A stretch of DNA of 64,000 bases from Bacteroidota bacterium (GTDB taxonomy: Bacteria; Bacteroidota; Bacteroidia; Bacteroidales; FEN-979), in contig JBAXLI010000008.1 of NCBI GenBank assembly GCA_037134895.1, forward strand, positions 17,294-81,293, given 5' to 3'. Below are positions 41,357 to 41,876 of this stretch, piece by piece (position 1 is the stretch's first letter; every line of letters begins with the position of its first letter). Made by a program: the position numbers and the translations under genes. The notes under the pieces are model-generated. The model saw only the letters and a list, made by a program, of their open reading frames with translations. It was not told where the DNA came from and searched no databases.

Positions 41357-41797
41357 ATGAAAAGATTTGTGAAACCTGCAGTCATCTTACCCTTCTTTTT
41401 TGCTTTTATTGTAATTTCCTGCAGCAAGACAGAGGACACTCAAAGGCCTGAGATCCCTTATGTGTTAGTAAATTTTTTCATAACACCCAATTCAACTCAG
41501 TATATCGAGCTGAACCATATAGGCGGTTCTGTCGCTGTTACAGGGGGATATAAAGGAATAATAATCTACAGGAAAACCGAAAACGAATTCATGGCTTTTG
41601 AGCGGGCATGTGCTTACGATCCCACAGCCGACAGTTCCCAGGTCAGGATTGAGGTTTCGGGGATTACCTGCAATTGTCCCAAATGTAAATCGAAGTATAT
41701 ATTACTTGATGGTTCGCCATTCCAGGGGCCATCCCAATGGGCTCTTAAACAATATCGTACAAACTACGACGGAACCTATCTTTACATATCGAATTAG
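41357..41797 (+). CDS. Hypothetical lipoprotein (Cys-rich C-terminal half)
   Basis: 146 aa with a lipobox (FIVISCSK) and a C-terminal CxC/CxxC pattern (ITCNCPKCKSKY). Its stop codon TAG lies inside the first unit of repeat locus L5. Confidence 0.5.
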   Translation: MKRFVKPAVILPFFFAFIVISCSKTEDTQRPEIPYVLVNFFITPNSTQYIELNHIGGSVAVTGGYKGIIIYRKTENEFMAFERACAYDPTADSSQVRIEVSGITCNCPKCKSKYILLDGSPFQGPSQWALKQYRTNYDGTYLYISN

Positions 41798-41876
41798 GGG
41801 TTGGGGTTTGGGGGTTAGGGATTAGTTTATCTCCAATCCCTAATCCCTAATCCCTAATCCCTAATCCCTAATACCT
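41793..41876. repeat. Heptamer array locus L5: class A x4-5, 9-nt spacer, class A' x5-6 (hairpin)
   Basis: ATTAGGG GTTGGGG TTTGGGG GTTAGGG ATTAG (41793..41825), then AATCCCT x5 plus AATACCT (41835..41876). It contains both the lipoprotein stop TAG (41795..41797) and the ahcY stop (41868..41870). Confidence 0.95.

Follow-up and report, generated by a model that had tools for sequence, protein, structure and literature searches.

Tandem arrays of heptanucleotide units are among the most abundant unexplained repeats in bacteria, and their role has been open for decades. Those described by Rehm and colleagues fall within the 'long SSR' (simple-sequence repeat) class that Mrazek and colleagues defined in 2007. 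Cyanobacteria carry the STRR heptamers, which are lineage-specific, tandem and mostly intergenic and whose function is not known. In Gammaproteobacteria, the REP/BIME (REPIN) elements follow stop codons, either inside operons or where genes converge, and seldom occur between divergent genes; they are single palindromic units of about 35 nt mobilised by RAYT transposases, and their inverted copies form hairpins that have been proposed to stabilise mRNA 3' ends. Here, we describe arrays of 7-nt units, mostly lying at gene ends, in a 64-kb stretch of DNA from a Bacteroidota bacterium (positions 17,294 to 81,293 of contig JBAXLI010000008.1, assembly GCA_037134895.1), referred to below as the window. 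The array loci of the window are numbered L1 to L11, and the contigs of relatives, strains and metagenomes fetched for comparison carry three-digit labels (L001-L219).

The closest described system is that of Rehm et al. (2015; PMC4692102), who reported the heptamers GGGAATC in Xanthomonas and GGGGAYT in Nostoc PCC 7120. These repeats are biased towards non-coding DNA and lie mostly 0-50 bp from a stop codon on its coding strand, some of them overlapping the stop; they stay near the open reading frame (ORF) on their 5' side whatever its orientation and are under-represented between divergent ORFs. They form inverted pairs, vary in length among relatives and show a preference for four units, and their function is not known (PMC4692102). 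A second system is that of the TAACTGA direct repeats found in marine Beggiatoaceae, some Cyanobacteria and five Bacteroidetes (MacGregor, 2015; PMC4679880). That report points out explicitly that this unit brings a stop in each of the three frames, and mentions long arrays and other heptamers in some Bacteroidetes.

The window arrays are like the Rehm repeats in all placement rules, and GGGGATT is literally a unit of the window (L3, L1). They differ in their host, an uncultured Bacteroidota; in two added families, TTACGAR and GGATGCR, which are not G-quadruplex formers, follow the same rules and grade into each other; in that nearly every locus is an inverted pair, two of them sharing a non-repeat core hairpin; and in giving direct evidence of array-encoded C-terminal tails and in-frame coding insertions. 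With the TAACTGA repeats they share an intergenic location and partial or whole units lying over the stop of the upstream gene, whereas those repeats stand mainly just upstream of starts, with a proposed role in translation control, and are mostly present in 2-6 copies of an unrelated unit in direct rather than inverted order (PMC4679880). The niche and the inverted hairpins recall REP elements, as does the conserved imperfect palindrome common to L1 and L2; unlike REP elements, the units are tandem heptamers, and the palindromic core was seen at these two loci only. The STRR heptamers belong to another phylum and have other units, and a stop-codon rule was not found documented for them in a literature search that gave passing mentions only. 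A search on the exact units of the window returned only telomere or primer papers and no bacterial report. The window arrays are thus a further example of known heptamer repeats and not a new class of element; what goes beyond the published cases is the presence of non-G-quadruplex families under the same rule, the shared core hairpin, the array-written tails and the in-frame insertions. The explanation that we favour, with a probability of roughly 0.6, is that heptamer SSRs have colonised the space behind genes, grow there up to a boundary set by selection and are likely to act as 3' hairpins. As a Bacteroidota case it offers clean natural comparisons, relatives having 4 nt or overlapping stops at sites where the window has 141-201 nt of array, from which it can be seen how far selection lets arrays advance at gene ends.

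Heptamer arrays and their position at gene ends

Tandem Repeats Finder (TRF) located period-7 arrays of 2-14 copies at 11 loci of the window, and a simple repeat detector found 16 arrays at period 7, none at other periods from 4 to 13 and none in 20 shuffles. The units stand head to tail in 7-nt tandem, as in the heptameric long SSR class (Mrazek 2007; Rehm 2015), whose arrays have from 2 to more than 20 copies, and can be sorted into three families: F1, GGGATTR/GGGGTTG, which is telomere-like and G-quadruplex-prone; F2, TTACGAR, in which ACGAGTG is included; and F3, GGATGCR. The three are related, inter-convertible heptanucleotide SSRs that grade into each other. Inverted pairs of the same family are present at seven loci (L4, L5, L6, L8, L9, L10 and L11), and F1 is combined with F2 at four (L1, L2, L3 and L7). 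On the + strand of every locus, the left side is made of forward units and the right side of their reverse complements, regardless of gene orientation; since this layout is constant, the forward arm comes first when each flanking gene is read outward on its coding strand. The forward arm is the purine- or G-rich one and its complement comes second. GGGATTR arms, with 4-11 G-tracts, fit the G-quadruplex sequence motif and TTACGAR and GGATGCR arms do not; four arms (L2 right, L5 left, L9 right and L11 left) have exactly four G-tracts. An assembly artefact was ruled out, the same arrays being present in independent ENA, JGI and NCBI assemblies.

The position of the arrays was measured on a map of 51 ORFs, in which the gene names are backed by NCBIfam for ahcY, the PcrB/GGGPS family, ElbB and FolE and, through weaker matches, for PurF, HIT and BI-1. 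Twelve stop codons lie between -9 and +8 nt from an array edge, with the forward arm on the coding strand in all 12 cases, while the six array-adjacent start codons lie at 9, 19, 26, 38, 42 and 96 nt, and the two sets of distances are wholly separate (Mann-Whitney p=4e-4). Nine of the 11 loci are intergenic, and arrays occupy four of the five convergent gaps of at least 50 nt, four of the 12 tandem gaps of at least 45 nt and one of the seven divergent gaps. The four occupied tandem gaps leave room for the array to slide, and in every one the block adjoins the stop. The non-coding excess, the scarcity between divergent genes, the forward strand lying on the coding strand, and the location within 50 bp of a stop or over it, abutting the 5'-side neighbour, are all as in the published class. 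TAG is the stop of 5/12 array-adjacent genes and of 7/39 others in the window, which is not a significant enrichment (p=0.12) of the kind that a general supply of stops by arrays would suggest.

The architecture can be followed at L5, between a lipoprotein gene and ahcY, where the stops of both genes lie inside the array. The segment 41793-41876 reads ...CGA ATT AGG GGTTGGGGTTTGGGGGTTAGGGATTAG-TTTATCTCC-(AATCCCT)5-AATACCTGTAATG... on the + strand. Its left arm (41793..41825, +) consists of the G-rich heptamers ATTAGGG GTTGGGG TTTGGGGG TTAGGG ATTAG, with 4 G-tracts, and the TAG at 41795-41797 of the lipoprotein ORF (41357-41797, +) is inside the ATTAGGG. The right arm (41835..41876, +), (AATCCCT)5, is the reverse complement of the left-arm family, and the TAG of ahcY (41868-43316 as listed, minus strand), which is CTA at 41868-41870 of the + strand, falls inside the C-rich array. 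The initial annotation had extended this arm by a last unit AATACCT; these letters are instead the native Arg-Tyr codons (reverse complement AGG TAT T) of ...KPEHYRY*, an ending common to every relative examined. On re-reading the sequence, the stop positions and array edges that it had quoted all proved correct, and the contact between stop and array was confirmed in its coordinates at the further gene ends that it had named, that of elbB through degenerate units; the stops of purF, TolC and folE, described as close to an array edge, were measured at 3, 0 and 5 nt from it.

An independent sample was obtained by scanning metagenome contigs for (TTACGAR)3, which gave at least 120 stretches, 80 loci from many environments being taken; it stood in for a whole-genome distance analysis of the source organism. 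Among the metagenome matches listed, which come from unrelated contigs, 30 intergenic TTACGAR arrays could be evaluated, and in 23 of them a stop lies on the 5' side, read on the forward strand. In 17 of these 23 the stop is no more than 7 nt from the array, the median being 2 nt, and 21 of the 23 arrays are nearer to the 5' stop than to the gene opposite (sign test ~3e-5). TTACGAR arrays are widespread over many metagenome assemblies, and at some loci several heptamer families are chained, as in L154 (8384-8600).

Gene ends in relatives and strains

Syntenic relatives were obtained by protein searches. The AhcY of the window has a best identity of 83-84% among species-representative genomes, to metagenome-assembled genomes of Bacteroidota, and the relatives include L091, a 78-kb JGI contig with the gene order of the window and proteins closely similar in the aligned C-terminal regions, and L216 (GCA_026391775.1). 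The gap between PcrB and elbB is 4 nt in L091 against 141 nt in the window, that between BI-1 and folE 34 nt against 97 nt, and that between ahcY and the gene for 4'-phosphopantetheinyl transferase (PPTase) 71 nt, with no array, against 321 nt. In L216 the stops of the RND and TolC genes overlap, and in the window 201 nt of array lie between them. Judged from the sequences, the arrays at the short-gap sites are a lineage-specific gain.

The initial annotation had proposed that arrays expand until they are stopped by selection on the coding sequence, possibly replacing native 3' ends, and the comparison of C-termini with orthologues supports this: six native ends are kept, the tails of the WbpB-like, PcrB, RND and HIT proteins are altered, conserved C-termini are preserved and only variable tails are overrun, and copy numbers change between strains. 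The C-terminus and the stop position are native and unchanged for AhcY (HYRY*), TolC (LEQF*, TAG), BI-1 (GDRK*), FolE (TRLH*) and PurF (VRAY*), as is the lipoprotein end YISN*, whose TAG is also present in the relatives L002 and L003. ElbB differs by one residue, profile matches extend to the model ends for AhcY, PcrB, ElbB, FolE and BI-1, and the GAF protein aligns to a few residues short of the end of its solved homologues.

The clearest alteration is that of the WbpB-like gene, whose tail and stop are visibly array-written in two frames. Its homologues conserve ...GDYHPFLK, followed by 0-6 variable residues. In the window the gene ends in AAA GGT GGG GAT TAG (K G G D *), the first units of L9 (53364..53477, +) coding for the last residues and the TAG (53369-53371); the locus, (GGGATTR)11 + (CCCCAAC)3, ends 26 nt before the ATG of galE. 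In strain L094 the end is AAG GGA TTA GGG ATT AGG GAT TAG (K G L G I R D *), in which GLGIRD* is (GGGATTA)3 read from a different frame, with the ORF closed by a TAG belonging to the array itself. The tails of close strains are GGD*, GLGIRD*, RRD* and GKGL*, the first two array-encoded at the DNA level. In L094 (1058-2437), the WbpB-like gene is followed by three GGGATTA units only and then by an insertion sequence (DDE_Tnp_1 transposase) instead of galE.

The other altered tails are shorter. PcrB has three residues more than in L091, the extra codons, GGATACA GGACATA, being decayed F3 units (degenerate GGATRCA). They adjoin L8 (49761..49903, +), which runs from the PcrB TAG (49760-49762) to the elbB stop (49904-49906) as (GGATGCR)3, a loop and (ATCTTGC)13, which decays into degenerate units; these continue from 49895, the end of the TRF array, up to the elbB stop. 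The bases from the PcrB stop onwards are TAGGATGC both in the window (49760-49768) and in L002 (~3690), and TAAGGAT in L091 (7456-7465); the likeness to L002, found despite a protein identity of ~60%, may be a seed or remnant of GGATGCR, or a coincidence. In comparison with L216, RND is longer by two residues and HIT shorter by two, and the TGA of both is made of a T and the GA of the first unit. Native ends being kept and only variable tails overrun, growth to a selection boundary with occasional replacement of 3' ends is supported. The distances to stops do not resemble random placement, and the pattern is not one of unchanged stops that look like repeat units by chance.

The arrays also differ between strains. 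Contigs from other samples can be assigned to the same species because the lipoprotein that they encode is identical. The right arm of L5 has three AATCCCT units in L086 against five in the window, with point variants in L082 and L083. In L081, L8 has two units more in the left arm and one less in the right arm, the array being 14 nt longer, and L7 is 42 nt (14 codons) shorter, with the frame kept and a different unit composition. Copy-number variation between close relatives, a further trait of the published class, is therefore seen at L5, L8 and L7.

In relatives, the units themselves can differ. The purF|HIT gap measures 60 nt in both the window and L216; in the window it is filled by L4 (30458..30516, +), a TTACGAR arm and a CACTCGT arm reaching from the purF stop (30452-30454) to the HIT stop (30515-30517), and in L216 by F3-like CCAGATG/CATCTGG. 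In the window the fabD|BI-1 gap holds F2 arrays, in L091 a mixture of F1 and F2 units. The window arrays are those of L10 (56596..56672, +), in which an ACGAGTG arm is combined with one of TCGTAAY; they directly adjoin the BI-1 stop (56672-56674, minus strand) and leave 38 nt to the start of fabD. Other units again are flush with the ahcY stop in relatives, CAGTTGG in L001 and GGAAGAC in L015. Slippage is clearly not the only process, some spread or turnover taking place as well. At the ahcY 3' end of two relatives the arrays have an 8-nt period, GTAAACRG in L002 (11410-11520) and GTTTAGAR in L004 (11410-11480), and those of L002 are inverted to each other and directly adjoin the stop of the lipoprotein gene; a 7-nt period is thus not essential to the architecture in every lineage.

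On this basis, the following mechanism can be proposed. Slippage would add and remove units, and arrays would sometimes be copied between loci, both processes being seen here. At the 3' end of a gene, the orthologue comparison suggests that purifying selection on the protein would be the sole limit on growth: where the C-terminus is conserved, the array would begin at the base after the native stop or share its letters, and where the tail is dispensable it would enter the ORF, the stop then being provided by the unit (TAG in GGGATTAG) or by the junction (T+GA). Near starts, arrays would halt 9-96 nt short, presumably because promoter and leader must be kept. Heptamer repeats can in this way create variation in protein tails and in-frame insertions.

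A probable role as transcript-end hairpins, and competing explanations

The inverted arms are predicted to fold into stable hairpins. That of L5 has -48.5 kcal/mol on the + strand and -32.8 on the - strand (z -11 and -6.7), and the corresponding values are -59.8 and -49.8 for L8, -41.5 and -37.9 for L11 and -74.8 and -65.9 for L2, the z scores of these four loci ranging from -3.6 to -11. In L11 (57426..57498, +), a TTTAGGG-type arm is paired with one of CCCTAAT units; the array is separated by 5 nt from the stop of folE (57504-57506, minus strand) and by 19 nt from the start of BI-1. Like intrinsic terminators, the arrays stand directly after genes, form stable hairpins and occupy the positions of canonical terminators in relatives; unlike them, their stems are much longer and built of repeats, and no U-tract follows any array. 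Between ahcY and the lipoprotein gene, L009 and L012 have hairpin-plus-U terminators of the ordinary kind. The window has canonical terminators of its own: one at 55640-55681 (AAAAGAAAGGCCCCGTG...CACGGGGCCTTTCTTTTTT), within the sole array-free long convergent gap (55624-55681), matched in L091 by a canonical terminator at the same epimerase|fabD position, and one at 31420-31455 (GCAAAAGACCCTTTTAAAGGGTCCTTTGC), in the array-free gap 31395-31483. As hairpin-plus-U structures stand at array-free gene ends, the genome uses both solutions. In the metagenome contigs L096 and L137, hairpins of TTACGAA repeats are followed by T7-T8. Since arrays occupy the terminator slot and some repeat hairpins elsewhere are T-tailed, the array pair may act as an RNA hairpin at the 3' end of the transcript, either as a terminator or as a block to 3' exonucleases. 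A scan of the 40-60 kb part of the window with a terminator consensus gave matches at chance level, all of them intragenic and none at arrays. No Rfam 15 family was matched at gathering score anywhere in the 64-kb window, the core hairpin shared by L1 and L2 included.

Several points weigh against growth to a selection boundary with a hairpin role. The canonical form of an intrinsic terminator is not attained, as the window hairpins have no U-tract; sense folds are not consistently stabler than antisense ones (L9, -40.8 against -48.9, with little difference at L10 and L11); each arm changes its copy number independently of the other; and a clear inverted partner of the same family accompanies only 9 of 65 TTACGAR arrays among the metagenome matches listed, although the polarity is 9 to 1 where a partner is present. 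Three things, moreover, are not explained by passive growth alone: the fixed polarity, in which the flank side invariably has the forward arm; the recurrence of a small set of units across many loci and genomes; and the full inverted array at sites where relatives have 4 nt or no spacer. From the paralogy of L1 and L2 it is clear that copying between loci plays a part too. Selection at the RNA level on the sense strand was rejected for want of a consistent sense/antisense bias in fold energy.

One rival view, for which the paralogy of L1 and L2 speaks, takes the loci to be copies of a small mobile element that is non-autonomous and resembles REP/BIME or a foldback miniature inverted-repeat transposable element; with heptamer arrays as its ends around a core hairpin, it would insert preferentially at the base behind a stop codon, slippage only remodelling the copies. 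Over ~105 columns, L1 (+) can be aligned with L2 (-) as a single composite made of a G-rich array, TGTTGTTG, a hairpin (C/G)TTCGCAGCA...GGTGCTRCGAA, CCATWCTW and an ATTCGTA array. The core hairpin, GGTTCGCAGCA...GTGCTRCGAAGC, is a non-repeat imperfect palindrome flanked by TGTTGTTG and CCATWCTW, and the similarity of the two centres exceeds that in 200/200 shuffles. Both copies start with TTGGGGATTGGGGATTAGGGATT directly after a stop, the TGA of the GAF gene and the TAG of TolC. At L1, the left arm (5192..5246, +), (GATTGGG)8, begins within the TGA (5191-5193) of this msrC-like GAF/fRMsr-like gene; the core hairpin (5247..5289, +), TTGTTGGTTCGCAGCA...GTGCTACGAAGCCATTCTT, is shared with L2 in opposite orientation, and the right arm (5290..5353, +), (ATTCGTA)5(CACTCGT)4, stops 9 nt short of an ATG at 5363. 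At L2, the left arm (18480..18597, +), (GATGCRG)13 shading into TTACGA-like units, begins within the RND TGA (18479-18481); the paralogous core follows at 18598..18652 (-), and the right arm (18653..18682, +), AATCCCT AATCCCT AATCCCC AATCCCC AA, has its 4 G-tracts on the minus strand and a last base that adjoins the native TolC stop (18683-18685). The two loci are copies of a single composite and hence paralogous, and some copy-and-paste spread takes place as well.

A mobile element would also account for the same three unit families at 11 loci, for arrays at sites that have a 4-nt spacer or overlapping stops in relatives, for the other unit family that L216 has in its orthologous purF|HIT gap, and for the constant inward polarity expected from inverted ends, and the niche behind genes is that of REP elements. 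However, the core is present at two window loci only and, in the other DNA fetched, just at the same locus in L218 and L219, and the loops of the other loci have no significant homology, the L4-L9 and L6-L11 scores being at the noise level of multiple testing. Neither target-site duplications nor fixed, defined element ends were found at the window arrays, no transposase was identified in the window, although no transposase search was made, and Rehm et al. found no link to mobile elements (PMC4692102). Unrelated units, even of 8-nt period, occupy the same sites in L001, L002, L015 and L215, which is more easily understood as local birth. We therefore consider such an element rather unlikely as the origin of the loci in general. 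Targeted insertion at gene ends, the other option raised by the initial annotation, is neither shown nor excluded.

A related scheme, to which we give little credence, is that the arrays, instead of being passive microsatellites, are the ends of a dispersing composite element made of a G-rich array, a core hairpin and a second array, or arise by directional addition at 3' ends; either way they would be placed at the first base after the stop and always grow inward from both flanks. If true, such directional or mobile placement would explain the invariant head-to-head polarity, the heptamers recurring in many genomes and the full arrays at sites without a spacer, and would represent a new way to build or replace transcript-end hairpins in Bacteroidota.

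Arrays could, on the other hand, be selected regulatory elements, in which G-quadruplexes and repeated protein-binding sites at gene ends modulate transcription or the fate of the mRNA. The GGGATTR/GGGGTTG arms fit the G3+N1-7 motif, the G-rich strand is the coding strand after stops, and the same units are present in very different metagenomes; the four arms with exactly four G-tracts recall the four-unit preference of the Rehm repeats, for whose heptamers GGGGAYT and GGGAATC quadruplexes were confirmed by circular dichroism (PMC4692102). Yet TTACGAR and GGATGCR cannot form G-quadruplexes and obey the same placement, the hairpin of an inverted pair competes with a quadruplex, copy number is unconstrained between strains, and the published systems have yielded no regulatory role. 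This makes a regulatory function of that kind quite improbable.

The initial annotation had further remarked that units carrying TAG or TAA give a frame-independent translation stop. This holds for GGGATTA-type arrays: as 7 and 3 share no factor, a stop-bearing unit closes all three frames within three units, the next stop lies 6/2/4 codons away in the three frames after ahcY and 6/16/4 after wbpB, and after ahcY, wbpB, lipoprotein and folE a stop is reached within 1-20 codons in all frames. It fails for TTACGAR and GGATGCR arrays, which are stop-free in all sense frames, the corresponding values being 38/62/84 for RND, 91/74/30 for purF and 25/32/34 for BI-1; all-frame stops are thus a side-effect of one unit type and not the reason for placement. 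That arrays are kept as frame-independent stops against read-through or frameshifting, for which GGGATTA and its complement, holding TAG and TAA, and the closure of the WbpB-like ORF by an array TAG even in strains with another entry frame might be cited, is very unlikely indeed and is refuted as a general explanation by the stop-free arrays, with 25-91 open codons after RND, purF and BI-1, and is opposed by the arrays of L6, which stand in the promoter region of two divergent genes, and of L3 and L7, which are in-frame parts of genes.

Arrays within genes and in the ahcY/PPTase region

Two loci lie in frame inside genes. L3 (24182..24339, minus strand), with a GGGGATT/GGGGGTT arm and an ATTCGTA/ACTCGTA arm, is a net insertion of 36 residues in the NifS (cysteine-desulfurase) domain of a native NifS-SelD fusion gene (minus-strand ORF 22710-25094); the protein has 794 aa in the window against 758 aa in L216, which has a 14-residue loop at the site. 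The sense strand of L3 is stop-free and unstructured (-16.2 kcal/mol, z +4.0). L7 (44004..44144, +) consists of CGAGGAA, ACCAACA and CCAACCC arrays in frame inside the PPTase gene (43611-44366, +), whose product has 251 aa in the window against 231 aa in L091, which lacks the array; it looks like a hypervariable coding insertion kept in frame. Both loci are tolerated inside genes because the stop-free, unstructured strand is the sense strand. Among the metagenome matches listed (L095-L174), ~18 of 48 evaluable TTACGAR arrays are located inside long ORFs.

L6 (43332..43514, +), composed of TTACGAR, GGATGCA and (ATCCTGC)14, lies between the divergent ahcY and PPTase genes, at distances of 42 and 96 nt from their start codons. 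The mechanical ORF list has a spurious PPTase start at 43383 and reads through the (ATCCTGC)14, while the gene calls of sister contigs start at the equivalent of 43611. Stop-free arrays make ORF callers extend or fuse genes and so represent a hazard for annotation.

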